Positions 2,994 to 38,615 of a DNA stretch of 64,000 nucleotides are shown here, piece after piece. The stretch lies in assembly GCF_036507355.1 (NCBI RefSeq), contig NZ_AP027877.1; one strand, written 5' to 3'. Both the position numbers and the translations under genes were made by a program. The notes under the pieces were generated by a model. That model was given only the letters and a program-made list of their open reading frames with translations. It searched no databases and was not told the DNA's origin. The stretch comes from Escherichia coli. Its GTDB lineage: Bacteria > Pseudomonadota > Gammaproteobacteria > Enterobacterales > Enterobacteriaceae. Every line of letters starts with the position of its first letter. Positions within the stretch are counted from its first letter, which is position 1.

Positions 2994-3653
2994 TTACTGC
3001 ATCATCCCGGAGAATTTATTCTCCGGGTCCATCTCCAGCGCCAGTCCTGACAACTGCTTTCTGTTTTTAATGAGATATCCTTTCTTGCTTTTAATTAATA
3101 AACCGTCGTGAATGAATTGCGCGAGAACATATAAAAGATGTCGATAAGAAACGCCTAAATACTCTGCCGCTTGCGTATGCTTTTCGTGATAAAGATCACC
3201 TTCTTGTGAGAGTAATATAAATGCTGCCAGGCGATTCACTAACGGAAATGATTGATTCTGAGTTAAAGAAACAATATTACGATAATTTTTATGACTTAAG
3301 GTGACGCAAAGTTTTCGTAAAAATAGGGTGTCGTTTAATAACAGCGGACGGTAATGTTTCATAGGGAGCGCAAGGCACCAACACTCTTCAATCGCCTGTA
3401 CTGCACGTGGTTCATGGTCTTTATCGATTAACTCAATCTCGCCAATAAAACAGGGGGCGGCAAAGAAATCGATCAGCGACACGCAACCATTAGCTAGCGT
3501 GGCGTAAAGCCTGGCGCGGCCTCGCGTCAGGTAAAACAGCCAGGACGGCTGTTGCCCTTCCTGCACAATGTAGTCACGCGCTAAAAAATGAAACAGCCGC
3601 GTATCGGCTGAAACATCCGTTAAAAAGCAATCCTTAAACGCGGATTCACTCAT
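2994..3653 (-). CDS. yeiL: CRP/FNR-family transcriptional regulator
   Basis: ORF 2994..3692; start moved to internal Met ([10 protein letters not shown]...) giving 219 aa as recalled for YeiL; cNMP-binding-like N-terminus and C-terminal HTH. Confidence 0.8.
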
Positions 3654-3821
3654 CAATTGCTGCTTAAGATCATTATTGTGGATTTCTTTCACGATGTTTA
3701 TCCGCTATGAGATTTCTCATATTTAGCATACGTACGCTGTTGTTAAGATTCAATCATCGGCCCGGTCGAATTTTCTTTGCTGTAGAAAAAATAACGCAAC
3801 TGGAAACAGAGGAAATAAACA

Positions 3822-4763
3822 ATGGAAAAGAGAAAAATTATTCTGGATTGTGATCCGGGTCATGATGATGCTATTGCAATGATGATGGCAGCGAAACATC
3901 CGGCAATAGATTTATTAGGCATCACTATTGTAGCGGGTAATCAGACGCTTGATAAAACATTAATTAATGGCCTGAATGTTTGCCAGAAACTGGAGATTAA
4001 TGTTCCGGTTTATGCGGGGATGCCGCAACCCATTATGCGTCAACAAATCGTTGCCGATAATATTCACGGTGAAACCGGACTGGATGGCCCGGTATTCGAG
4101 CCGCTGACCCGCCAGGCAGAAAGTACCCACGCGGTGAAATACATCATTGATACCCTGATGGCAAGCGATGGCGATATCACTCTGGTGCCGGTTGGTCCGT
4201 TGTCAAATATCGCGGTGGCAATGCGTATGCAATCCGCAATCCTGCCCAAAATCCGTGAAATTGTGCTAATGGGCGGCGCTTACGGTACAGGCAACTTCAC
4301 GCCATCTGCCGAGTTCAACATCTTTGCTGACCCGGAAGCCGCACGCGTGGTGTTCACCTCCGGCGTTCCATTAGTGATGATGGGCCTCGATCTTACCAAC
4401 CAGACCGTTTGCACCCCGGACGTAATTGTTCGGATGGAAAGGGCAGGCGGCCCTGCCGGAGAGCTATTCAGCGACATCATGAACTTCACTCTCAAAACGC
4501 AGTTCGAAAACTACGGCCTGGCTGGCGGCCCGGTGCACGACGCCACCTGCATCGGTTATCTGATTAACCCTGATGGCATTAAAACCCAGGAGATGTACGT
4601 CGAAGTGGACGTCAACAGTGGCCCTTGCTATGGGCGTACCGTCTGCGACGAGCTGGGCGTTCTTGGCAAGCCCGCTAATACCAAAGTCGGCATCACTATT
4701 GATACCGACTGGTTCTGGGGCTTAGTCGAAGAGTGCGTGCGCGGCTACATCAAAACCCATTAA
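3822..4763 (+). CDS. rihB: pyrimidine-specific ribonucleoside hydrolase
   Basis: 313-aa ORF beginning [17 protein letters not shown] (nucleoside hydrolase DxDxxxDD aspartate motif). Confidence 0.9.
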
Positions 4764-4909
4764 GTGTTGATAACAAGCCGGGTCAGTATCGCAAAATGCA
4801 GGCCCGGCTATTTCTGAGGGGCAGAAAGCCGTCGCCCAATATGACATGAAGAGATAATAACTATGGATGTCATGAGAAGTGTTCTGGGAATGGTGGTATT
4901 GCTGACGAT

Positions 4910-4918
4910 TGCGTTTTT
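4910..4918. repeat. target-site duplication (left copy) TGCGTTTTT
   Basis: Identical 9-mer directly flanks both IS1 ends (4910..4918 and 5687..5695). Confidence 0.8.
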
Positions 4919-4973
4919 GGTGATGCTGCCAACTTACTGATTTAGTGTATGATGGTGTTTTTGAGGTGCTCCA

Positions 4974-5249
4974 GTGGCTTCTGTTTCTATCAGCTGTCCC
5001 TCCTGTTCAGCTACTGACGGGGTGGTGCGTAACGGCAAAAGCACCGCCGGACATCAGCGCTATCTCTGCTCTCACTGCCGTAAAACATGGCAACTGCAGT
5101 TCACTTACACCGCTTCTCAACCCGGTACGCACCAGAAAATCATTGATATGGCCATGAATGGCGTTGGATGCCGGGCAACAGCCCGCATTATGGGCGTTGG
5201 CCTCAACACGATTTTACGTCACTTAAAAAACTCAGGCCGCAGTCGGTAA
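4974..5249 (+). CDS. insA: IS1 InsA (transposition inhibitor / N-terminal part of InsAB' transposase)
   Basis: 91-aa [26 protein letters not shown]..., recognised IS1 InsA zinc-finger/HTH protein; GTG start. Confidence 0.9.
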
Positions 5250-5671
5250 CCTCGCGCATACAGCCGGGCAGTGACGTCATCGTCTGCGCGGAAATGGACG
5301 AACAGTGGGGCTATGTCGGGGCTAAATCGCGCCAGCGCTGGCTGTTTTACGCGTATGACAGGCTCCGGAAGACGGTTGTTGCGCACGTATTCGGTGAACG
5401 CACGATGGCGACGCTGGGGCGTCTTATGAGCCTGCTGTCACCCTTTGACGTGGTGATATGGATGACGGATGGCTGGCCGCTGTATGAATCCCGCCTGAAG
5501 GGAAAGCTGCACGTAATCAGCAAGCGATATACGCAGCGAATTGAGCGGCATAACCTGAATCTGAGGCAGCACCTGGCACGGCTGGGACGGAAGTCGCTGT
5601 CGTTCTCAAAATCGGTGGAGCTGCATGACAAAGTCATCGGGCATTATCTGAACATAAAACACTATCAATAA
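5168..5671 (+). CDS. insB: IS1 InsB reading frame (transposase catalytic part, expressed by -1 frameshift from insA)
   Basis: 167-aa ORF in -1 frame overlapping the insA 3' end, typical IS1 organisation. Confidence 0.85.
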
Positions 5672-5686
5672 GTTGGAGTCATTACC

Positions 5687-5695
5687 TGCGTTTTT
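5687..5695. repeat. target-site duplication (right copy) TGCGTTTTT
   Basis: See left copy. Confidence 0.8.
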
Positions 5696-6945
5696 ACTGT
5701 CAGTAAACAAGAAGAAGATCAGCCTGCGTACCGTTGGCGCGGCGTTAGTGTTACAGGTTGTGATTGGCGGGATTATGCTTTGGTTACCGCCAGGGCGTTG
5801 GGTCGCTGAAAAAGTCGCTTTTGGCGTGCATAAAGTGATGGCGTACAGCGATGCAGGTAGCGCATTTATCTTCGGTTCGCTGGTCGGGCCGAAAATGGAC
5901 ACGCTGTTTGATGGCGCAGGATTTATCTTTGGTTTCAGGGTGTTACCGGCAATTATCTTCGTCACCGCGCTGGTGAGTATTCTCTATTACATCGGTGTGA
6001 TGGGGATCTTAATTCGCATTCTCGGCGGTATATTCCAGAAAGCATTAAATATCAGCAAGATCGAGTCATTCGTCGCGGTCACTACCATTTTCCTCGGGCA
6101 AAACGAAATTCCGGCGATCGTCAAACCCTTTATCGATCGTCTGAATCGCAATGAATTATTTACAGCGATTTGTAGTGGCATGGCCTCGATTGCTGGTTCG
6201 ACAATGATTGGTTACGCCGCACTGGGCGTGCCTGTGGAATATTTGCTGGCGGCATCGTTAATGGCGATCCCAGGCGGGATCTTGTTTGCCCGCCTGCTAA
6301 GCCCGGCTATGGAATCTTCGCAGGTTTCTTTTAATAACCTCTCTTTCACCGAAACACCGCCAAAAAGCATTATTGAAGCTGCCGCGACAGAGGCAATGAC
6401 CGGGCTGAAAATCGCCGCAGGTGTGGCGACAGTAGTGATGGCATTTGTCGCCATCATTGCGTTAATTAACGGTATTATCGGCGGCGTTGGCGGCTGGTTT
6501 GGTTTTGAACATGCCTCGCTGGAATCCATTTTAGGTTACCTGCTGGCCCCACTGGCGTGGGTGATGGGTGTTGACTGGAGTGATGCGAATCTTGCCGGGA
6601 GTTTGATTGGTCAGAAACTGGCAATAAATGAATTTGTCGCTTATCTCAATTTCTCACCCTATCTGCAAACGGCTGACAAGCTGGATGCTAAAACCGTGGC
6701 GATTATTTCCTTCGCGTTGTGCGGTTTCGCTAACTTTGGTTCTATCGGGGTGGTGGTGGGGGCGTTTTCTGCGGTTGCGCCACACCGTGCGCCGGAAATC
6801 GCCCAACTTGGTTTACGCGCGCTGGCGGCGGCGACACTTTCTAATCTGATGAGTGCCACCATTGCCGGGTTCTTTATTGGTTTAGCGTAGTGTGCGATTT
6901 ATGAGCCGGATAATATGCGGTCAAGCGTCGAATCCGGCAACATTG

Positions 6946-8034
6946 TTACACCATTGGCATTAATGAAAGCGCGTTATCGGCAGACAAGGTAGGGTTATTT
7001 AAGCTGCCGCTGGCGCGTGAAATTGCCGCGCAGGCCATCGCAAAACGGGCGCTGTCACGGAAATTGTTTCCTTCCAGAAAGCTATATACCAGGCCCGCCA
7101 TAAAACCATCGTCAGCACCAAAACTGTCTACTGTCGTATGCGCTGGTGCGGTCAGCAAAAATTGTTCTCCATCCTTTTCGCTGCAATAAACTGACTCATC
7201 GGGCAAATAAACAAACAGTTGCTGAACACCTTGCTGATGCAACGCATTCACTGCAGCATTACGGTCAGCATCGCTGGTGATCGCCTGTCCCCATAAAATT
7301 TCCAGCTCCGGTAAAGTGGGTTTCAGGGTGTGAATATGCGCCAGCCAGTGTTTGATTTTGCCCGCTTTGAATTCTGAAACGGTATCGACAAACACCGGGA
7401 TCTCATCAGCGAGGGTAAAGACCCATTCCAGCGCCTCGGCTGTCAGGTTGCAATCAGCCAGTACCACGCCCGCATGACGAAGTAAATCGCGCGACCCGTT
7501 CAGTAGTTGCGGTGTCAACTGTTCCAGCAGATGGGTATCGTTAATCGCCAGCACGGTTTGATCGTCTCGATTGGCAATTGCCAGATACGTCGATGTGCTT
7601 TGACCATGCAAACGAACGCAGCCGGAGACATTCACGCCGGCACGGCGCGTTTCTTCCAGGAGCATTTCGCCATAAAAGTCATCGCCAATCACTGAAAGCA
7701 AATGGACGTCGCGGCCTAACAGCGCCAGATTGTGGGCGATATTGCGTCCAACGCCGCCTGCCGAGCAATGAATTGTACCGGGATGAGAAGCCGATTGCGG
7801 GTAACGGATATCCGCCATCCCGCGAATATCCATATTGATTGTCCCCACCACTACGCAGTATTCCTGCTCGGTGAGAATGTAACCTTTGCCTTTAATCCGG
7901 CCTTTGCGCATTAAATCCATAATATGCGCCGCAACGCGCGAACGGCTGATTTGCAGCATGTCCGCAATTTCGTTCTGCTGAATCAGCGGGTTACGCCGTA
8001 AAATTGCAAGGATCTCCTTTTCCCGGTTATTCAT
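6946..8034 (-). CDS. yeiI: PfkB-family sugar/nucleoside kinase with N-terminal HTH domain
   Basis: 362-aa ORF; N-terminal HTH (EILAILRRNPLIQQNEIADMLQISRSRV) fused to ribokinase-like domain (GADD motif). Confidence 0.85.
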   Translation of the reverse strand: MNNREKEILAILRRNPLIQQNEIADMLQISRSRVAAHIMDLMRKGRIKGKGYILTEQEYCVVVGTINMDIRGMADIRYPQSASHPGTIHCSAGGVGRNIAHNLALLGRDVHLLSVIGDDFYGEMLLEETRRAGVNVSGCVRLHGQSTSTYLAIANRDDQTVLAINDTHLLEQLTPQLLNGSRDLLRHAGVVLADCNLTAEALEWVFTLADEIPVFVDTVSEFKAGKIKHWLAHIHTLKPTLPELEILWGQAITSDADRNAAVNALHQQGVQQLFVYLPDESVYCSEKDGEQFLLTAPAHTTVDSFGADDGFMAGLVYSFLEGNNFRDSARFAMACAAISRASGSLNNPTLSADNALSLMPMV

Positions 8035-8036
8035 CT

Positions 8037-8894
8037 TCAGGCTACCGCTTTTTCAGTTTGTTGCGCTTTCAGCCAGGCGATCTCTTCTGCCCAGATATCC
8101 GGGTTGATGGTTTCGAGGATCAGCGGAATGCCGTCGAAACGGTCGTCCTGCATGATCCAGCGGAACGCATCATGACCGATATTGCCTTCACCGAGGCTAT
8201 GATGGCGGTCAACGCGGCTGCCAAAGGTGCTTTTCGCATCGTTAAGGTGCATCCCGCGCAGATACTTAAAGCCGACAATACGGGCAAAATCAGCGAACGT
8301 TTTCTCGCATTCGGCTGGAGTACGCAAATCATACCCGGCAGCGAAAGCATGGCAGGTATCAATGCAGACGCCGACACGGGATTTATCTTCCACGCCGTCG
8401 ATAATCGCCGCGAGATGTTCGAATTTAAACCCTAAGTTACTGCCCTGACCGGCGGTGTTTTCAATCACCGCGGTCACACCTTGAGTTTTATCCAGCGCAA
8501 TGTTGATGGATTCGGCAATACGCGCAAGGCAATCCTCTTCTGAAATCTGCATCAGATGGCTGCCAGGGTGGAAGTTGAGCAAAGAAAGCCCCAGCTGTTC
8601 GCAACGCTGCATTTCATCTATAAAGGCATCGCGCGATTTTTCCAGAGCTTCAGTGACCGGATGTCCGAGGTTAATCAGATAGCTGTCGTGGGGAAGAATT
8701 TGCGCCGATGTGTAGTGATATTTTTCACAGGCGGCTTTGAATTCATCGATGGTTTGCGTCGTGAGCGGTGCGGCACGCCACTGACGTTGGTTTTTGGTGA
8801 ACAAGGCAAACGCGGTTGCGTCGATTTCGGCGGCGCGAATTGCGGCATTTGCCAGACCGCCAGCAGCACTAACGTGCGCTCCAATGTATTTCAT
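8037..8894 (-). CDS. nfo: endonuclease IV (AP endonuclease)
   Basis: 285-aa [17 protein letters not shown]...; length and sequence as recalled for Nfo. Confidence 0.95.
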
Positions 8895-8967
8895 GCGAGG
8901 ACTCCTGTTAAACCCGCTGGAGGAAAACGGTAATGATAGCGGGTTAACAGGAGCAAGATGTAGTGGT

Positions 8968-10017
8968 TTATGCGATGACGCTTTGAATCACATAGTTAAT
9001 CGCACCACCACCAACAATCAGCCAGGCAAACAGTACCAGTGCCATCAGCAGAGGTTTCGCCCCGGCTTTTTTCAGCGCGCTGACGTGAGTGGTCAGACCC
9101 AGCGCCGCCATCGCCATTGCCAGCAGGAAGGTATCCAGCGTTACCAGCATGTTCACCACGCTCTGCGGTAACAGGTGGAACGAGTTAAAGATGGCAACTA
9201 CGATGAACAAGATGGCAAACCACGGAATAGTGATTTTGCTTTTCTCGCCGCTGTTCGCCCCAGACAGCTGTTTAACACGCGCCGCCAGCAGGATGAGGAA
9301 CGGAGCCAGCATCATCACGCGCAGCATTTTGGAAATAACTGCTGCGTTTTCCGCATCCGGGCTGATGGCATGACCTGCCGCCACCACCTGCGCCACTTCG
9401 TGCACAGTAGAACCAATGTAGATACCGAAAGTTTCCGGACTAAACCATTGAGACATCAGCGGATATATCGCCGGGTAGAGGAAAATCGCGACGGTCCCGA
9501 AGATAACAACGGTTGCAACAGCCACGGTTACTTTACTGGCTTCCGCTTTCACTACCGGCTCAGTCGCCAGTACCGCGGCAGCACCACAAATACTGCTACC
9601 GGCACCGATCAACCAGCTGGTGTGCTTATCCAGACCAAACACTTTCTGCCCCAGGAAGCAAGCCAGCAGGAAGGTACTGGACAGCGTCAGCACGTCAATG
9701 ATGATCCCACTGATACCGACATCGGCAATTTGCGAGAACGTCAGACGGAAGCCATAAAGAATGATACCCAGACGTAATAAATATTGCTTGGCAAACAGCA
9801 CACCACCGTCACAGCTTTTCCAGATGTGCGGATAGATGGTGTTGCCTAAAACCATCCCCAACAAGATTGCGAGGGTGAGGGCACTAAACCCGGCACCCGC
9901 AACCGCGGGAATGGAACCACCCCACAGGGCGACCCCGGTGATAACTGCACTCAGGGCTAACCCCGGAATAAAATGCCACAGTGTACGATGTTGTTTCTGT
10001 AAGGTGATATTCGTCAT
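8968..10017 (-). CDS. yeiH: UPF0324 family inner membrane protein
   Basis: 349-aa polytopic membrane ORF; divergent from the LysR regulator yeiE. Confidence 0.85.
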
Positions 10018-29269: not shown

Positions 29270-29363
29270 TTAATTCGTAAAACGTGCTACCGATCACATT
29301 AAGAATTCTCAGCATAGTTGAATTTTAGGGAGGTAACCTCGGGCGAGCGCCCCGTTCAGCACA

Positions 29364-30272
29364 CTAATTCTGCTGTAAAAAGTGCAGAAACTGACTTAAA
29401 GCATAAGAAGGCGTTTCGTTATTGCGCCAGAACACACCGACGCTACCTTTCTGTTCTATCTTTGGCAGGTTGAGTATCACCAGTTGTCCCTGGCTGGCAT
29501 AACGTTGCGCCAGGCGTAATGACAAAATAGAGATCATATCGCTGCTTTGTAACAGGTTGGTACTGACGTTCATCGACGCCGACTCAATCGTGTTTTCTGG
29601 CAGCATTACGCCGTGGTCTACCAGCGCATTATCAATACTAATGCGAATGGGGGTACCCGTCGGCCAGACGATCCAGCGCCAGTTGGCAAGATCATTCCAG
29701 CTGAGGGTGGCGTATTTCGCCAGTGGGTGCTCAGGGCGGGCGACAAAGCATACTGGCTCGGTGTACAGCACCTGATAATTCAGTGGCAGCTGCAATGCGC
29801 GACCGCCAATTCGCCCAACGACCACATCGACAGAACCTGCCAATAGATCTTGCAGCAATGGGGTCATCACCTTCTCTTCGATATTCAGGTGTAGAGTTGG
29901 CATCTTCGTAAGCAAATGCAAAATCGCCTGGGATACGCAGTCAGTGGCGACGGGAGAACAGCCAATTTTCAGACTGCCGACCAGTCCACCTTGTTTAAAA
30001 CGGGCCAGTTCATGTTGCGATCGCTCCATGTCATTGATTAACCGTTGGGCATGTTGCAATAACAATTTGCCGCCTTCAGTCGGACGTAATCCTTTGCTGT
30101 GCCGCTCAAAAAGTGTGATTCCAATCTCATCTTCGAGTTGTGACAACCATTTCGAAAGCGCAGGTTGGGTGATATTCATCATTCGTGCGACATGGGTTAG
30201 ATTGCCCTGTTCACCCAGCGCCACCAGCATTTCAAGGTGATGTAGTTTTAATTTTTGCGCCCAGTTCGCCAT
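29364..30272 (-). CDS. mhbR: LysR-type transcriptional regulator of the gentisate cluster
   Basis: ORF 29364..30320 trimmed to MANWAQKLKLHHLEMLVALGEQGNLTHVARMMNITQPALS (LysR HTH); divergent from the catabolic operon. Symbol by analogy to the Klebsiella mhbRTDHIM cluster. Confidence 0.75.
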   Translation of the reverse strand: MANWAQKLKLHHLEMLVALGEQGNLTHVARMMNITQPALSKWLSQLEDEIGITLFERHSKGLRPTEGGKLLLQHAQRLINDMERSQHELARFKQGGLVGSLKIGCSPVATDCVSQAILHLLTKMPTLHLNIEEKVMTPLLQDLLAGSVDVVVGRIGGRALQLPLNYQVLYTEPVCFVARPEHPLAKYATLSWNDLANWRWIVWPTGTPIRISIDNALVDHGVMLPENTIESASMNVSTNLLQSSDMISILSLRLAQRYASQGQLVILNLPKIEQKGSVGVFWRNNETPSYALSQFLHFLQQN

Positions 30273-30398
30273 TTGCCATAACCTCCAGGTTATCTCTCTG
30301 CCCGAAATGCCATTGTACATCTCATCTCTTTAATCACAATATCGCAACATATACAAAACAAAAGAAACATCTACCTTACCTGCACTGAGGCATTTACT

Positions 30399-31757
30399 AT
30401 GACTCAACGACGTGATTTACAAGCACTTATCGATGCTGCTCCGGTCGGCAAGATGCAGTGGCGCGTTATCATCTGCTGTTTTCTGGTGGTAATGCTCGAT
30501 GGTTTTGACACCGCGGCTATCGGATTTATCGCCCCTGATATTCGCACTCACTGGCAACTCACCGCAGGCGATCTCGCCCCGCTTTTTGGCGCGGGTCTGC
30601 TAGGATTAACCGCAGGCGCACTGCTTTGTGGCCCGTTGTCCGATCGCTTTGGTCGCAAGCGGGTGATTGAGCTGTGCGTCTTTTTGTTTGGCGCGTTAAG
30701 CCTCGCCTCGGCTTTCTCACCGGATCTGCAAACGCTGGTCTTCCTGCGCTTTCTCACCGGCCTGGGTCTGGGCGGCGCGATGCCGAACACCATCACCATG
30801 ACCTCGGAGTATCTGCCTGCCCGCCGCCGCGGCGCGCTGGTGACGCTGATGTTTTGCGGCTTTACGCTGGGTTCGGCGTTTGGCGGGATTGTCAGTGCGC
30901 AGCTGGTGCCGGTGATTGGCTGGCACGGCATTCTGGTGTTGGGGGGCGTGTTACCGCTGATGCTGTTTGTCGCACTGCTGGTAGTTCTGCCGGAATCGCC
31001 ACGCTGGCAGGTGCGCCGCCAGCTACCGCAGGCGGTGATTGCGAAAACCGTCAGCGCCATCACCCGCGAGCGTTATGTCGATACCCACTTTTATCTCATT
31101 GAATCAGCCTCCGTTACAAAAGGCAGCATTCGTCAACTGTTTATGGGACGTCAGTTACCCATCACGTTGATGCTGTGGGTAGTGTTCTTTATGAGCCTGC
31201 TGATTATTTACCTGCTCTCAAGCTGGATGCCGACGCTACTGAACCATCGCGGCATCGACCTGCAACACGCGTCCTGGGTCACCGCCGCGTTCCAGATTGG
31301 TGGTACGTTAGGCGCGCTGGCGCTGGGTGTGCTGATGGATAAGTTCAATCCTTTCCGCGTGCTGGCGCTGAGCTATGCCATAGGCGCTATATGCATCGTG
31401 ATGATTGGCTTAAGCCAGGATGGATTATGGTTGATGGCGCTGGCGATTTTCGGCACTGGCATTGGCATTAGCGGATCGCAGGTGGGGCTGAATGCGCTGA
31501 CCGCAACACTTTATCCAACACAAAGTCGCGCCACGGGCGTGAGCTGGTCAAATGCTATCGGCCGCTGCGGCGCGATTGTTGGTTCGCTGTCTGGCGGCGT
31601 GATGATGGCGATGAATTTCTCTTTCGACACCCTGTTTTTCATTATCGCTGTGCCTGCGGCGATCAGTGCGGTGATGTTAACCCTGCTGATTACCGTGGTT
31701 CGCCAGTCGACCTCTGTCCCTGACTCACTGCCTCGCGCAGGCGTTGTGAACGAATAA
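30399..31757 (+). CDS. mhbT: MFS transporter (aromatic acid/H+ symporter family), probable 3-hydroxybenzoate/gentisate uptake
   Basis: 452-aa 12-TM ORF; first gene of the operon. Confidence 0.75.
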
Positions 31758-31768
31758 GGAGCATCCCA

Positions 31769-32797
31769 ATGACTGATAACAATCAAAATAGCCGCGAGCA
31801 ATTTTATCAGCATATTTCCGGGCAAAACCTGACCCCGCTGTGGGAGTCACTGCACCATCTGGTGCCGAAAACGCCCAACGCTAACTGTGCGCCAGCGTAC
31901 TGGAATTATCAGGAGATCCGCCCGCTGCTACTGGAGAGCGGCGGCCTGATTGGTGCGAAAGAGGCCGTGCGCCGCGTGCTGGTGCTGGAAAACCCGGCGC
32001 TGCGCGGGCAGTCTTCCATTACCGCGACTTTATATGCCGGTTTGCAACTGATCATGCCGGGCGAAGTGGCACCGAGTCATCGTCATAATCAGTCGGCGCT
32101 GCGTTTTATTGTTGAAGGCAAAGGGGCATTTACCGCCGTTGATGGCGAACGCACGCCAATGAATGAAGGCGATTTTATCCTGACCCCGCAGTGGCGCTGG
32201 CACGATCACGGTAACCCTGGCGACGAACCGGTTATCTGGCTCGATGGGCTGGATCTGCCATTAGTGAATATTCTGGGCTGCGGTTTTGCCGAAGATTATC
32301 CGGAAGAGCAACAACCGGTAACGCGTAAAGAGGGAGATTATCTGCCGCGTTACGCTGCCAATATGTTGCCGCTGCGGCATCAGACGGGGAACTCCTCGCC
32401 GATCTTTAACTATCGTTATGACCGCAGCCGCGAAGTGCTGCACGATTTAACCCGACTGGGCGATGCCGACGAGTGGGATGGCTACAAAATGCGCTACGTC
32501 AACCCGGTCACCGGCGGCTATCCGATGCCGTCGATGGGCGCTTTCCTGCAACTGCTGCCGAAAGGGTTTGCCTCACGCGTTGCGCGTACCACTGACAGCA
32601 CCATCTACCATGTGGTGGAAGGTAGCGGGCAGGTCATCATCGGCAATGAAACCTTCAGCTTTAGTGCAAAAGATATCTTCGTGGTGCCGACCTGGCATGG
32701 CGTGTCGTTCCAGACCACGCAAGATTCCGTTTTATTTAGTTTTTCGGACAGACCGGTACAAGAAGCCCTGGGGCTGTTCCGCGAAGCGCGTTATTAA
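31769..32797 (+). CDS. mhbD: gentisate 1,2-dioxygenase (bicupin)
   Basis: 342-aa ORF with cupin His motifs ([17 protein letters not shown]); typical gentisate dioxygenase length. Confidence 0.8.
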
Positions 32798-32811
32798 TTT
32801 AGGAGAGAAAA

Positions 32812-33513
32812 ATGACTCAATACGTATTCGAACCGCAAGCGCCCGTTACCGTACCGGTTGTTGGCAGTGATGAACAATTCCCCGTGCGCCGCGTTTACTG
32901 CGTCGGACGTAACTATGCCGCTCACGCCCGCGAAATGGGCTTTGATCCGGATCGTGAACCGCCATTCTTCTTCTGCAAACCGGCGGATGCCGTTGTTCCG
33001 GTTGCCGCTGGTGAAACGCTGGCGCTGCCGTATCCGGCACAGACCGATAACTACCATTACGAAATTGAACTGGTGGTGGCGATTGGTAAAAAAGGCAGCG
33101 ATATCCCGCTGGAACACGCCCATGAATATGTCTGGGGTTATGCCACGGGTCTTGATATGACTCGGCGTGACCGTCAAATGGAAATGCGCCAGATGGGCCG
33201 CCCGTGGGAAATCGGTAAAGCGTTTGATCTCTCAGCGCCCATCGCGCCGCTGCACAAAGCCCGCGATATCGGCGGTATTGATAATGCGCCAATCTGGTTA
33301 CAGGTTAACGGCGAAGATCATCAGCGCAGCGATATTCGCCATCTCATCTGGTCGGTGAATGAAACCATCAGCTATCTGTCAGGCTTCTTTGAGCTGCAAC
33401 CGGGCGATCTGATCTTCACCGGTACGCCGGAAGGGGTTGGCCCGGTAGTGAAAGGTGATGTGATCACAGGCAACGTCGAGGGCTTAACGCCTATCGCGGT
33501 GAAGATTGTCTGA
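32812..33513 (+). CDS. mhbH: fumarylpyruvate hydrolase (FAH family)
   Basis: 233-aa ORF with FAH-fold signatures ([14 protein letters not shown]; [10 protein letters not shown]). Confidence 0.75.
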
Positions 33514-33518
33514 GGTGC

Positions 33519-34166
33519 ATGATGAAGCTGTACAGTTTTTTTAATAGTTCAGCGTCGTACCGGGTACGCATTGCGCTGGCGCTGAAAGGCATTAATTACC
33601 AGACCGAAGGGGTGAATATCCGTATTGGTCAGCAAAATGAACTGGCCTATCGGCGGATGAATCCGGTCGGGCTGGTGCCGACGCTGCTGACTGACGAGGG
33701 CGAATCACTCGGACAATCGCTGGCGATTATTGACTGGCTGGAGAGGCACTACCCGCAAGTTCCGCTGGTGCCGCAGGAAGAGCCGGCCCGCAACAAGGTG
33801 CTGGAAATTGTCTATGCCATCGCTTGTGATATTCATCCATTGAATAACTTGCGCGTGCTGCGCTACCTGACCGAAGAACTGAACGTCAGTGAAGAAGAAA
33901 AAAAACGTTGGTATGCGCACTGGATCCAGCAAGGGTTAAGCGCGGTGGAACAACTGTTGCGCCAGAACCAGTCGGGGCAATTTTGTGTGGGCGAGACGCC
34001 GACGCTGGCAGATTGCTGCCTTGTCCCGCAGTGGGCGAACGCGCTACGCATGAACTGCGATTTGAGCGGGTATCCACGCTGCAAAGCGGTGTACGACGCC
34101 TGCACACAGCTGCCAGCGTTCATTGCCGCAGCGCCAGAAAATCAACAAGATAAAATTTCAGCCTGA
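33519..34166 (+). CDS. mhbI: maleylpyruvate isomerase (glutathione S-transferase zeta-like)
   Basis: 215-aa ORF with GST N-terminal fold (MKLYSFFNSSASYRVRIAL). Confidence 0.75.
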   Translation: MMKLYSFFNSSASYRVRIALALKGINYQTEGVNIRIGQQNELAYRRMNPVGLVPTLLTDEGESLGQSLAIIDWLERHYPQVPLVPQEEPARNKVLEIVYAIACDIHPLNNLRVLRYLTEELNVSEEEKKRWYAHWIQQGLSAVEQLLRQNQSGQFCVGETPTLADCCLVPQWANALRMNCDLSGYPRCKAVYDACTQLPAFIAAAPENQQDKISA

Positions 34167-34180
34167 CCAGGAGAACTATA

Positions 34181-35374
34181 ATGACGAAAGTGACACGCGC
34201 AGTAATTGTGGGAGGCGGGATCGGCGGTGCGGCAACTGCGCTGTCACTGGCCCGCCTGGGGATCAAAGTGGTGCTGCTGGAAAAGGCGCATGAGATCGGT
34301 GAGATTGGCGCGGGCATCCAGTTGGGGCCAAATGCGTTTTCGGCGCTGGACAGCCTCGGCGTCGGCGAAGTTGCCCGCCAGCGCGCGGTGTTTACCGATC
34401 ACATTACCATGATGGATGCGGTGAACGCCGAAGAAGTGGTGTGCATTGAAACCGGGCAGGCTTTTCGTGACCATTTCGGCGGCCCTTACGCGGTGATCCA
34501 CCGGGTTGATATTCACGCCTCGGTGTGGGAAGCGGTACTGACGCATCCGGACGTGGAATATCACACCTCCACCAACGTCGTGGATATTCGCGAGACGGAA
34601 GACGATGTCACCGTGTTTGACGATCGCGGCAATAGCTGGACCGGCGATATTCTGATTGGCTGTGACGGCGTGAAGTCAGTGGTGCGCCAGAGCTTATTGG
34701 GCGATGCGCCGCGTGTCACCGGACATGTTGTCTACCGTGCGGTTATCGATCGTGCCGATATGCCGGAAGATTTGCGCATTAACGCACCGGTACTGTGGGC
34801 GGGGCCGCATTGTCACTTGGTGCATTACCCTTTGCGCGGCGGCAAGCAGTATAACCTGGTGGTAACATTCCACAGCCGCCAGCAGGAAGAGTGGGGCGTG
34901 AAGGATGGTAGTAAAGAGGAAGTGCTCTCTTACTTTGAAGGGATTCACCCCCGTCCGCGCCAGATGTTGGATAAACCGACTTCATGGCGACGCTGGTCAA
35001 CCGCTGACCGTGAACCGGTGGCGAAGTGGGGAACGAAGCGCATAACGCTTGTGGGCGATTCGGCCCATCCGGTGGCGCAATATATGGCGCAGGGAGCCTG
35101 TATGGCGCTGGAAGATGCAGTAACGCTGGGTAAGGCGCTGGCGCAGTGTGAGGGTGATGCGGCGCAAGCCTTTGCGCTGTATGAGTCGGTACGAATTCCG
35201 CGCACCGCGCGCATCGTCTGGTCGACCCGTGAAATGGGGCGGGTTTACCACGCCGCAGGGGTAGAACGCCAGGTACGTAATCTGCTGTGGAAAGGGAAAT
35301 CGCAGGCAGAATTTTATCGCGGCATGGAGTGGTTGTACGGCTGGAAAGAAGATAACTGTTTGCAACCACGCTAA
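34181..35374 (+). CDS. mhbM: 3-hydroxybenzoate 6-hydroxylase (FAD-dependent monooxygenase)
   Basis: 397-aa ORF with N-terminal FAD-binding GxGxxG (VIVGGGIGGAATAL) and flavin monooxygenase core. Confidence 0.8.
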   Translation: MTKVTRAVIVGGGIGGAATALSLARLGIKVVLLEKAHEIGEIGAGIQLGPNAFSALDSLGVGEVARQRAVFTDHITMMDAVNAEEVVCIETGQAFRDHFGGPYAVIHRVDIHASVWEAVLTHPDVEYHTSTNVVDIRETEDDVTVFDDRGNSWTGDILIGCDGVKSVVRQSLLGDAPRVTGHVVYRAVIDRADMPEDLRINAPVLWAGPHCHLVHYPLRGGKQYNLVVTFHSRQQEEWGVKDGSKEEVLSYFEGIHPRPRQMLDKPTSWRRWSTADREPVAKWGTKRITLVGDSAHPVAQYMAQGACMALEDAVTLGKALAQCEGDAAQAFALYESVRIPRTARIVWSTREMGRVYHAAGVERQVRNLLWKGKSQAEFYRGMEWLYGWKEDNCLQPR

Positions 35375-35394
35375 GCACTTCTTCACCCAATCAG

Positions 35395-35450
35395 GCGCAC
35401 GGGCGGTCCCCTCGCCCCTTCGGGAGAGGGTTAGGGTGAGGGTAAAAATC
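35395..35450. repeat. GC-rich imperfect palindromic element at the gentisate-cluster/dusC junction
   Basis: GGCGCACGGGCGGTCCCCTCGCCCCTTCGGGAGAGGGTTAGGGTGAGGGT: CCCTCGCCCC/GGGAGAGGG imperfect inverted repeat. Confidence 0.4.
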
Positions 35451-35533
35451 TTGCCCGAATTAATCAGTAAGTCAGTTTGTCTGCAAACACAGGAGGCGCT
35501 AACATAGCGCCTCATTTTTTTGCGGGTGATGAT

Positions 35534-36484
35534 ATGCGTGTGTTACTGGCTCCGATGGAGGGAGTGCTTGACTCTCTGGTGCGTGAATTGCTGACCGAAG
35601 TTAACGACTACGATCTGTGCATCACCGAGTTCGTCCGCGTGGTGGATCAACTGCTGCCGGTGAAAGTCTTTCATCGCATTTGCCCTGAGCTACAAAACGC
35701 CAGCCGGACACCATCCGGTACGCTGGTGCGCGTGCAGTTGTTGGGTCAGTTCCCACAATGGCTGGCAGAGAACGCCGCCCGTGCGGTGGAATTAGGTTCC
35801 TGGGGCGTGGATCTCAATTGCGGCTGCCCGTCGAAAACGGTTAACGGTAGCGGTGGTGGGGCGACGTTACTCAAAGATCCTGAACTCATCTACCAGGGTG
35901 CAAAAGCGATGCGTGAAGCTGTACCGGCGCATTTGCCCGTCAGCGTGAAAGTGCGTCTGGGCTGGGACAGCGGTGAGAAGAAATTTGAAATCGCCGATGC
36001 GGTTCAACAGGCTGGTGCTACGGAGCTGGTGGTGCATGGACGGACAAAAGAGCAGGGTTACCGCGCGGAGCATATTGACTGGCAGGCGATTGGCGAGATT
36101 CGCCAGCGGCTGAATATTCCGGTGATTGCCAACGGCGAAATCTGGGACTGGCAGAGCGCGCAACAATGCATGGCGATCAGCGGCTGCGACTCAGTGATGA
36201 TTGGTCGCGGGGCGCTCAATATTCCCAACCTGAGCCGGGTAGTAAAATATAACGAACCGCGAATGCCGTGGCCGGAGGTGGTTGCTTTGCTGCAAAAATA
36301 TACCCGTCTGGAAAAGCAGGGCGATACCGGGTTATATCACGTAGCGCGGATTAAACAGTGGTTGAGTTATTTGCGTAAAGAATACGATGAAGCAACAGAA
36401 TTATTTCAGCATGTTCGTGTGTTGAATAATTCCCCTGATATTGCAAGGGCTATTCAGGCAATTGATATCGGTAAGCTGCGATAA
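35534..36484 (+). CDS. dusC: tRNA-dihydrouridine(16) synthase
   Basis: ORF 35477..36484 trimmed to [21 protein letters not shown]... (~316 aa); Dus-family TIM barrel. Confidence 0.9.
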
Positions 36485-36871
36485 TAGTGGAATCGCAGTT
36501 TATCAGAGACAATGAATCGCTTATTCAGCTTCATCATCTTGTTGCGCTCCTTTCATGAGCTAAGCCACATATTGCCACTGGCGCAAGGAGCGCGCAGGGG
36601 GAGGACAATCGCCTCCTCCCCCTGCACCCCCGGGCTCTGGCGAACAAAATCGCCGCTGCGCGGTACCTTCAGCTTATCCCCTTCGGCTACCGGGTCGGGC
36701 GCGAGGAAACGTCCTTGTAAGACGCGCCCTCAGCCCACATCCATGTGGGCTGCCCCGGCCTTCGGGGAACGCTTCAGCGATTTTGACGCCACCAACACCG
36801 GAGCTGTTTGCAAATCAAGTACACAAAATATCTAGTTCCTGACCTGACAACTTATATGTCATATCTGATTT

Positions 36872-36955
36872 TTAAAATATCATCTTAAATACGCCAGTCA
36901 CCACCAGTAGCCCAATCAGGAAAATAATCAATACAGCCCAGAGTATAATTTTCAT
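36872..36955 (-). CDS. yohP: small single-TM membrane protein (27 aa)
   Basis: Read from sequence: MKIILWAVLIIFLIGLLVVTGVFKMIF with RBS-like AAGGAACGCC upstream; below the 60-aa track cutoff; matches recalled YohP. Confidence 0.8.
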   Translation of the reverse strand: MKIILWAVLIIFLIGLLVVTGVFKMIF

Positions 36956-37178
36956 TGGCGTTCCTTTATTTGTGAGTGCTGAATAAGTATAGGAAAAAAC
37001 GAAGCCCTTTGCCGTTATCCATAAACGATTAAGATAAATCGGAAGATATCATTCACTTAGTGTATATTTTTCTGGATATGTCGTTTTATTGCTACTGATG
37101 TATTGCCACGCGAAACTAAAAAATATATCGCAACACACGGTAATCTCCGCGCACCTTTTCTTACCTGATTATTCCCCC

Positions 37179-38615
37179 ATGAATCGTGATTCCTTTTATC
37201 CAGCCATCGCCTGTTTTCCGCTGTTACTGATGCTGGCCGGGTGTGCGCCTATGCATGAAACCCGCCAGGCGTTAAGCCAGCAAACGCCCGCTGCACAAGT
37301 TGACACCGCATTACCCACGGCGCTGAAAAATGGTTGGCCAGACAGCCAATGGTGGCTGGAGTATCACGATAATCAACTCACTTCCTTAATTAACAATGCA
37401 CTACAGAACGCACCGGATATGCAGGTGGCTGAACAGCGCATTCAGTTAGCTGAAGCCCAGGCGAAGGCAGTTGCTACTCAGGATGGTCCGCAGATCGACT
37501 TTTCTGCGGATATGGAGCGGCAAAAAATGTCGGCAGAAGGGCTAATGGGGCCGTTTGCTCTGAACGATCCGGCCGCAGGTACGACCGGTCCGTGGTACAC
37601 CAACGGAACTTTTGGCTTAACGGCGGGCTGGCATCTCGATATCTGGGGAAAGAATCGGGCGGAGGTTACTGCCCGCCTGGGTACGGTTAAAGCACGGGCG
37701 GCGGAACGCGAGCAAACCCGCCAATTGCTGGCTGGCAGCGTAGCCCGCCTGTACTGGGAGTGGCAAACCCAGGCGGCGTTAAACACGGTCTTGCAGCAAA
37801 TCGAAAAAGAGCAGAACACCATTATCGCGACCGATCGCCAGCTATATCAGAACGGGATTACTTCTTCAGTTGAAGGTGTGGAAACCGATATTAATGCCAG
37901 CAAAACCCGGCAGCAGCTCAACGATGTCGCGGGGAAAATGAAAATTATTGAGGCACGGTTAAGCGCACTTACAAATCACCAGACAAAGTCATTGAAGCTT
38001 AAACCGGTCGCGTTGCCGAAAGTGGCAAGCCAGCTTCCTGATGAACTGGGGTACTCCTTACTGGCCCGGCGGGCAGATTTGCAGGCGGCGCACTGGTACG
38101 TTGAGTCATCGCTAAGCACCATTGATGCGGCAAAAGCGGCATTTTATCCTGACATCAACCTGATGGCCTTCCTGCAACAGGATGCGTTGCACTTAAGCGA
38201 TCTGTTCCGTCATTCCGCGCAGCAAATGGGCGTTACGGCAGGCCTGACGCTACCCATTTTCGATAGTGGTCGTCTTAACGCCAATCTCGATATCGCAAAA
38301 GCTGAAAGCAACTTGTCTATCGCCAGCTACAACAAAGCGGTGGTTGAAGCGGTGAATGACGTGGCGCGGACAGCCAGTCAGGTTCAGACACTTGCGGAGA
38401 AAAACCAGCATCAGGCGCAAATTGAGCGCGATGCCTTGCGTGTGGTAGGTCTTGCGCAGGCGCGCTTTAACGCGGGCATCATTGCTGGTTCCCGCGTCAG
38501 CGAAGCCAGAATCCCCGCGTTGCGTGAGCGGGCCAATGGCCTGTTATTGCAAGGGCAGTGGCTGGATGCCTCCATTCAACTCACTGGTGCGTTGGGCGGG
38601 GGTTACAAACGCTGA
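37179..38615 (+). CDS. mdtQ: outer-membrane efflux lipoprotein (OMF/NodT family), apparently intact
   Basis: ORF 37089..38615 trimmed to MNRDSFYPAIACFPLLLMLAGC (lipoprotein signal, LAGC lipobox), 478 aa, uninterrupted. Confidence 0.8.
   Translation: MNRDSFYPAIACFPLLLMLAGCAPMHETRQALSQQTPAAQVDTALPTALKNGWPDSQWWLEYHDNQLTSLINNALQNAPDMQVAEQRIQLAEAQAKAVATQDGPQIDFSADMERQKMSAEGLMGPFALNDPAAGTTGPWYTNGTFGLTAGWHLDIWGKNRAEVTARLGTVKARAAEREQTRQLLAGSVARLYWEWQTQAALNTVLQQIEKEQNTIIATDRQLYQNGITSSVEGVETDINASKTRQQLNDVAGKMKIIEARLSALTNHQTKSLKLKPVALPKVASQLPDELGYSLLARRADLQAAHWYVESSLSTIDAAKAAFYPDINLMAFLQQDALHLSDLFRHSAQQMGVTAGLTLPIFDSGRLNANLDIAKAESNLSIASYNKAVVEAVNDVARTASQVQTLAEKNQHQAQIERDALRVVGLAQARFNAGIIAGSRVSEARIPALRERANGLLLQGQWLDASIQLTGALGGGYKR

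Follow-up and report, generated by a model that had tools for sequence, protein, structure and literature searches.

A GC-rich palindrome between mhbM and dusC of Escherichia coli O157 is very probably a copy of the BoxC interspersed repeat

The GC-rich palindromic element between mhbM and dusC in the window, that is, the whole 64,000-nt stretch of E. coli O157:H7 DNA analysed, is very probably a member of the enterobacterial family of BoxC interspersed repeats (PIT/TMECO/HPG1), a non-coding sequence with no locus-specific role. The names BoxC (Bergler, 1992; Bachellier, 1999), PIT element (Hoyne et al., 2000; Hoyne and Maher, 2002), and TMECO (Holder et al., 2015, PMC4666352) denote the same repeat, the family having been reported in 1992 and described anew in 2000, 2015, and 2016, and the present copy is itself already known. 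As a catalogued copy of a known repeat family the element matters little, and the finding is an ordinary one; the analysis of its surroundings corrected three tempting annotations, namely the identity of the mhb terminator, the status of the gentisate cluster, which is ancestral rather than an acquired island, and the age of the BoxC copy, which is a later, lineage-specific addition.

On the plus strand of the window sequence, the palindrome reads CCCTCGCCC-CTTC-GGGAGAGGG-TTA-GGGTGAGGG (35409-35442), and the wider plus-strand read from the mhbM stop to the dusC ATG runs ...GCGCACGGGCGGTC CCCTCGCCC CTTC GGGAGAGGG TTA GGGTGAGGG TAAAA.... The first-pass annotation had reported a GC-rich palindrome (GGTCCCCTCGCCCCTTCGGGAGAGGGTTAGGGTGAGGGT) between the mhbM stop and the dusC start, and this was confirmed in the sequence: the element is intergenic between the stop codon TAA (35372-35374) and the dusC ATG (35534), its hairpin starting 35 nt past the former and the element lying 92 nt upstream of the latter. 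The span originally assigned to it (35395-35450) roughly coincided with the repeat unit delimited herein by blastn (35393-35447) or by a profile search (35388-35449). The hairpin pattern CCCTCNCCC-N4-GGGNGAGGG occurred once in the 64 kb as against 0.02 expected from shuffles, the G-rich 21-mer GGGAGAGGGTTAGGGTGAGGG occurred once in the window and not at all in 100 shuffles even with three mismatches allowed, and the full three-block pattern was found once, at 35409-35442 on the plus strand, as against 0.00 expected. Folded as RNA, the hairpin comprised nine pairs and one central G.A mismatch, with a stability of -14.3 kcal/mol. The features of the locus are collected in Table 1.

Table 1. Positions in the window of the repeat unit, its blocks, and the neighbouring features
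Feature	Position	Strand	Basis and remarks
BoxC/PIT/TMECO (type A, one mismatch)/HPG1 unit, ~55-62 nt	35388..35449	+	Profile and blastn; takes in the 5' flank GCGCACGGGCGGTC and the 3' AAAA
Block 1, C-rich arm CCCTCGCCC	35409..35417	+	Exact TMECO consensus match; pairs with block 2, central G.A mismatch
Block 2 GGGAGAGGG	35422..35430	+	Forms Watson-Crick pairs with block 1; supplies G-tracts one and two of the G-quadruplex motif
Block 3 GGGTGAGGG, after the TTA loop	35434..35442	+	Proposed triplex third strand; last two HPG1 G-tracts
Lineage-specific 111-nt block: BoxC unit plus single-copy tail, in place of the 13-nt TAATCCGCTGACC	35381..35491	+	Allele comparison
Probable real mhb terminator, outside the repeat	35493..35521	+	Terminator scan, RNA fold, conservation across genera
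mhbM (3-hydroxybenzoate 6-monooxygenase), last gentisate operon gene	34181..35374	+	RefSeq annotation of identical O157 genomes
dusC (tRNA dihydrouridine(16) synthase), downstream gene	35534..36484	+	RefSeq annotation

Of the three origins that had been proposed for the palindrome, membership in a repeat family proved to be the right one. The element fits exactly the TMECO consensus CCCTCNCCC-N3-6-GGGNGAGGG-N3-GGGNGAGGG (Holder et al., 2015, PMC4666352), in which its TTA second loop places it in type A and its central G.A mismatch in the commonest K-12 subtype. A profile HMM (nhmmer) built from 11 other E. coli copies (nine K-12 loci, the pstA-pstB copy, and the EC31 argE-ppc copy) returned a sole significant match in the 64-kb window, at 35388-35449 (51.5 bits, E = 3.3e-15), and this match took in the family-specific 5' flank and the 3' AAAA, the flanks being alignable among copies. 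Likewise, blastn aligned the region 35393-35447 to copies at other loci with approximately 91% identity over 55 nt, in good agreement with the 56 bp of the classical BoxC unit. A larger unit of approximately 95 nt, considered on the grounds of a 95-nt alignment (82%) with the EC31 argE-ppc copy, was rejected: the tail at 35443-35492 occurred once per genome and in only 365 of the 5426 complete E. coli genomes searched, and the repeated unit is thus the ~55-nt BoxC. An outer palindrome in the flanks (GCACGG/CCGTGC) was also discarded, as it was inconsistent between copies.

The genome-wide motif search proposed by the first-pass annotation was run, and copies elsewhere turned out to be abundant. 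A 51-nt query over the element matched 5424 of the 5426 complete E. coli genomes; the per-genome median was 19 BoxC places, O157 PV15-279 had 15, and the places in this set numbered 93,464 on chromosomes versus 67 on plasmids. The copy under study had also been listed before: Supplementary Table S8 of Holder et al. (2015) gives an identical 35-mer, CCCTCGCCCCTTCGGGAGAGGGTTAGGGTGAGGGT, as Sakai TMECO no. 28 (NC_002695, 2959442-2959408), and in NC_002695.2 the sole match in the region was located at 2959543-2959577 within the dusC-mhbM gap, which together established that the mhbM-dusC copy was already catalogued. Furthermore, the G-rich 21-mer of the element was identical to the HPG1 G-quadruplex motif GGGAGAGGGTTAGGGTGAGGG (Kaplan et al., 2016, PMC5100583). 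Our literature searches found no functional work on BoxC/PIT/TMECO/HPG1 beyond Holder et al. (2015) and Kaplan et al. (2016).

With the BoxC/PIT/TMECO repeats the window copy shares, besides the exact consensus, the type A loop, and the G.A mismatch, the 5' flank GCGCACGG.CGGTC, the 3' AAAA, the unit length of ~56 bp, and an intergenic, chromosomal location. It differs from the K-12 type A consensus in lacking one G where block 2 begins (CTTC-GGGAGAGGG versus CTTTGGGGAGAGGG), so that its stem has 9 pairs instead of 10, and in ending in T rather than G; moreover, it stands alone, without the inverted partner seen in the type A plus type B pairs. With HPG1 (Kaplan et al., 2016, PMC5100583) it shares the identical 21-mer preceded by a conserved C-rich region, and no difference exists at the sequence level, HPG1 being another name for the same repeats and the regulatory role being the proposal of Kaplan et al. 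The REP/BIME (PU) elements resemble BoxC in being short, GC-rich, palindromic, intergenic, multicopy, and often placed past the last gene of an operon, whereas their sequence is unrelated and the third G-rich block is found only in BoxC. To our knowledge, no mobilising enzyme of the RAYT type is known for BoxC. Read directly, the element bore no resemblance to the GCCGGATAAGGCG-type REPs in the Citrobacter amalonaticus spacer.

Three alleles were distinguished at mhbM-dusC, namely one without BoxC, one with BoxC, and one with a degenerate BoxC. The BoxC allele was found in approximately 366 of the 504 E. coli genomes that carry mhbM beside dusC. The rest of the 504, for instance E. coli 200177 and E. 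coli E69, carry the short allele, which has an intergenic region of 61 nt in these strains and in E. albertii and of approximately 61 nt in five Citrobacter loci, contains no BoxC, and reads TGA-GCACTT-TAATCCGCTGACC-GGAGGCGC.... In comparison with 200177, E69, E. albertii, and other genera, 111 nt of O157 (35381-35491) stand in for the 13 nt TAATCCGCTGACC, and the short form of the outgroups marks the BoxC allele as derived. REP/BIME-like repeats have arrived independently in the spacer between mhbM and the terminator in Citrobacter amalonaticus and Klebsiella, and as a tandem array in Pseudenterobacter timonensis, while Kluyvera carries insertions of 1.5-2.1 kb in the same spacer (loci L009, L010, L015, L018, L024, L019, L026, and L039 in all); the spacer is therefore a permissive landing site. 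The mhbM-dusC locus thus offers a well-defined BoxC allele series, a rare case of before and after, which is usable for studying the function and spread of the family, and its clean insertion junctions could help to show how the family spreads.

Based on these comparisons, we propose that, on the line leading to O157:H7, a 111-nt BoxC-bearing block would have displaced 13 nt between the mhbM stop and the conserved terminator, leaving BoxC in what is presumably the 3' UTR of the mhb operon, co-transcribed upstream of the true terminator. In the RNA, BoxC would form a GC-rich hairpin only, and termination would be brought about by the downstream hairpin and its T7 run. In the DNA, the G-rich single strand might adopt an intrastrand purine-motif triplex or a G-quadruplex, by analogy with consensus oligonucleotides in vitro. 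TMECO consensus oligonucleotides do form an intrastrand triplex in vitro with block 3 as the third strand (Holder et al., 2015, PMC4666352), and the HPG family changes in vitro from hairpin to G-quadruplex and back according to the K+ and Mg2+ present; the CD and NMR data on both structures come from consensus oligonucleotides only, the stem of which is one pair longer than that of the window copy. Since no triplex was seen by DMS footprinting in vivo (Holder et al., 2015, PMC4666352), the DNA-structure step is a conjecture for the present locus. Rather than regulating mhb or dusC, the element would most plausibly cause occasional trouble in replication or repair, making its surroundings prone to illegitimate recombination and indels.

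The neighbourhoods of TMECO elements are unusually variable in statistical terms (Holder et al., 2015, PMC4666352), and one rearrangement broke within the element itself. A second mhb cluster was found in 88 complete E. coli genomes and in contig L007, in a context rich in IS3, IS66, ISEc60, and IS5. This second copy (L087, E. coli DLI.6n, 3032-9148; L007, 2501-3760) showed 96.9% identity with the window across 6,119 bp (29312-35429), and the right end of the homology, at 35429, falls within block 2 of a degenerate BoxC (TCTCCTTGCCC-TTCG-GAGAGG), beyond which lies unrelated AT-rich DNA. The breakpoint inside the element fits the variability statistics of Holder et al., as a single case of anecdotal weight. 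That BoxC itself caused both the 111-nt replacement and the capture of the mhb cluster, through structure-induced breaks or template switching, appears rather unlikely; each end of the captured segment falls in a short gap between genes, where breaks would be tolerated by selection anyway. If true, the locus would be direct natural evidence of BoxC-driven illegitimate recombination and gene-cluster capture. The left end of the second copy lies at most 7 nt from the K-12 deletion junction (29305/29306). As for contig L007 (JAIJJM010000061.1), labelled 'MAG: Collinsella sp.', its mhbM was 99.6% identical to that of an E. coli chromosome and its sequence was typical of Escherichia, and the contig almost certainly represents enterobacterial DNA wrongly assigned to an actinobacterial MAG during binning.

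A cis-regulatory function, in which the element would act as a hairpin/G-quadruplex switch in RNA or DNA and tune dusC or mhb through mRNA 3'-end stability or read-through into dusC, is improbable. It would suit the location within the mhb 3' UTR, with the dusC ATG 92 nt further on, the in vitro switching of the family with K+ and Mg2+, and the greater folding stability of the whole mhb 3' UTR relative to shuffled sequences (z = -3.3). However, most species and approximately 138 E. coli genomes run mhbM and dusC without the element, the family shows no positional or functional bias relative to genes (Holder et al., 2015, PMC4666352), the downstream terminator hairpin already gives 3'-end protection, and an Rfam scan of 33000-38000 at E ≤ 10 returned no match at the element. 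A G-quadruplex in the transcript was also considered and rejected, as ViennaRNA with its G-quadruplex option preferred the hairpin for the 55-mer RNA (-24 versus -12.6 kcal/mol).

The palindrome had also been taken as a possible operon terminator, a suggestion that found no support. Like a Rho-independent terminator, BoxC places a GC-rich stem-loop past a stop codon, but no U-rich tract was present directly 3' of the stem, where the next sequence is TTAGGGTG, or TAAAAATC after block 3, and the terminator scan did not flag the element, reporting at this place only 35493-35513. The latter is the real terminator candidate, a 9-bp stem GAGGCGCTA-ACA-TAGCGCCTC followed by A and T7; the hairpin 35493-35521 folded with -15.9 kcal/mol (z = -7.4) and ends 12 nt before the dusC ATG. 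The same hairpin and T-run were also found between mhbM and dusC in Citrobacter (at least six loci), Salmonella diarizonae, Klebsiella, Raoultella, Enterobacter, Pseudocitrobacter, Pluralibacter, Shimwellia, and E. albertii, with BoxC absent from the mhbM-dusC gap in all of these non-E. coli loci, and the hairpin is retained in K-12 as well. The mhb terminator is thus probably this conserved hairpin and not the GC palindrome, as judged from scan, fold, and conservation, and we infer that no mhb 3' ends fall at the element. That the element nonetheless serves as an intrinsic or structure-based terminator, its GC hairpin or a G-quadruplex on the non-template strand halting RNA polymerase after mhbM, seems very improbable. 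In its favour are the stability of the hairpin (-14.3 kcal/mol) 35 nt past the mhbM stop and the speculation of Kaplan et al. (2016, PMC5100583) on a terminator role of HPG motifs inside operons; yet the stem runs on without a U tract into UUAGGGUG, and block 3 into UAAAAAUC, a textbook terminator lies only ~50 nt downstream and is kept in all genera, including those without BoxC, and the pst operon has a BoxC copy of its own within it, in the pstA-pstB gap. In addition, PIT elements showed neither promoter nor terminator activity and no effect on RNA polymerase in the assays of Hoyne and Maher (2002), as far as these are related by Holder et al. (PMC4666352).

In every enterobacterial genus examined, the hairpin with its T7-8 run ended approximately 12-25 nt before the dusC ATG, and the only sequence upstream of dusC common to all alleles was the 40-nt hairpin stretch. 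K-12 keeps the hairpin (L002, 2391-2420, minus strand) without a co-directional gene upstream. The loop (TAACAT/TACCAT/TATGAT) resembles a -10 box, and dusC could be transcribed either from a promoter that overlaps the hairpin or as a result of read-through.

The remaining proposal, that the palindrome marks the junction scar of an island insertion, was not borne out by gene order. The region 34900-36000 of the window was 100% identical to many O157 chromosomes, in which RefSeq gives the order yohK, yohJ, LysR regulator, mhbT, gtdA, FAH-family hydrolase, maiA, mhbM, dusC, yohP, mdtQ, and Citrobacter werkmanii and Salmonella enterica diarizonae, which keep yohK-yohJ-mhbR...mhbM-dusC-mdtQ in synteny, were collinear with O157 over preT-yeiS-sanA-cdd-yohK-yohJ-LysR-mhbT-gtdA-FAH-maiA-mhbM-dusC-...-mdtQ-...-yohD-yohC-pbpG-dld-bglX (yohP and yohF being called in Salmonella only). 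This conserved synteny, together with the adjacency of mhbM and dusC in more than 10 genera, indicated that the cluster is ancestral between yohJ and dusC and that K-12 has a deletion; O157 retains the ancestral arrangement, and K-12 and approximately 90% of E. coli have lost the cluster. The comparison with the empty site in K-12, likewise proposed in the first-pass annotation, placed the break elsewhere: K-12 homology stops at window position 29305 and restarts at 35494, with 126 private K-12 nt between (K-12 L002, 2387-2624), so that homology resumes ~50 nt beyond the element and not at it, and the element lies ~50-85 nt inside the O157-specific DNA rather than at its junction. No repeats linking 29306 to 35380-35495 were present among the 20 largest direct-repeat families and the 25 longest inverted pairs listed. 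We therefore give very little credence to the element being a junction scar or attachment-site remnant of a gentisate island inserted beside dusC, for although the K-12-absent segment (29306-35493) includes it near the right end and the 6.1-kb segment shared with the IS-flanked second copy ends inside it, the yohJ-dusC flanks are syntenic in Citrobacter and Salmonella and mhbM-dusC adjacency extends to more than 10 genera, the cluster occupies this site but the element is missing in E. albertii and approximately 138 E. coli genomes, the element belongs to a multicopy family at many unrelated loci, and no direct or inverted repeats link the cluster ends among those listed.

Within the 126 nt private to K-12, a palindrome with an 11-bp stem, AGAGGGATTGC-agtttgca-GCAATCCCTCT, was noted. 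The possibility that these 126 nt represent a decayed BoxC or a cluster remnant was rejected, as neither the window nor the extended EC31 copy showed significant similarity to them by blastn-short.

The mhbM alleles within E. coli differed by 4-8% at the nucleotide level in mosaic blocks (loci L032, L003, and L008), O157 being 92.5% identical to E69 and 94.5% to 200177. This divergence, which may exceed the within-species expectation, suggests that the alleles arose by recombination or from several origins.

The strict three-block core of the repeat was also observed in more than 120 viral or proviral contigs (IMG/VR, L088-L207) with GC contents of 0.32-0.74 and unrelated flanks. In these cores, the centres of blocks 1 and 2 covaried (T-A to C-G), the variant with the G.A mismatch recurred, and the centre of block 3 was nearly always T or A. 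Overall, the three-block core was found across many phyla, again with unrelated flanks.
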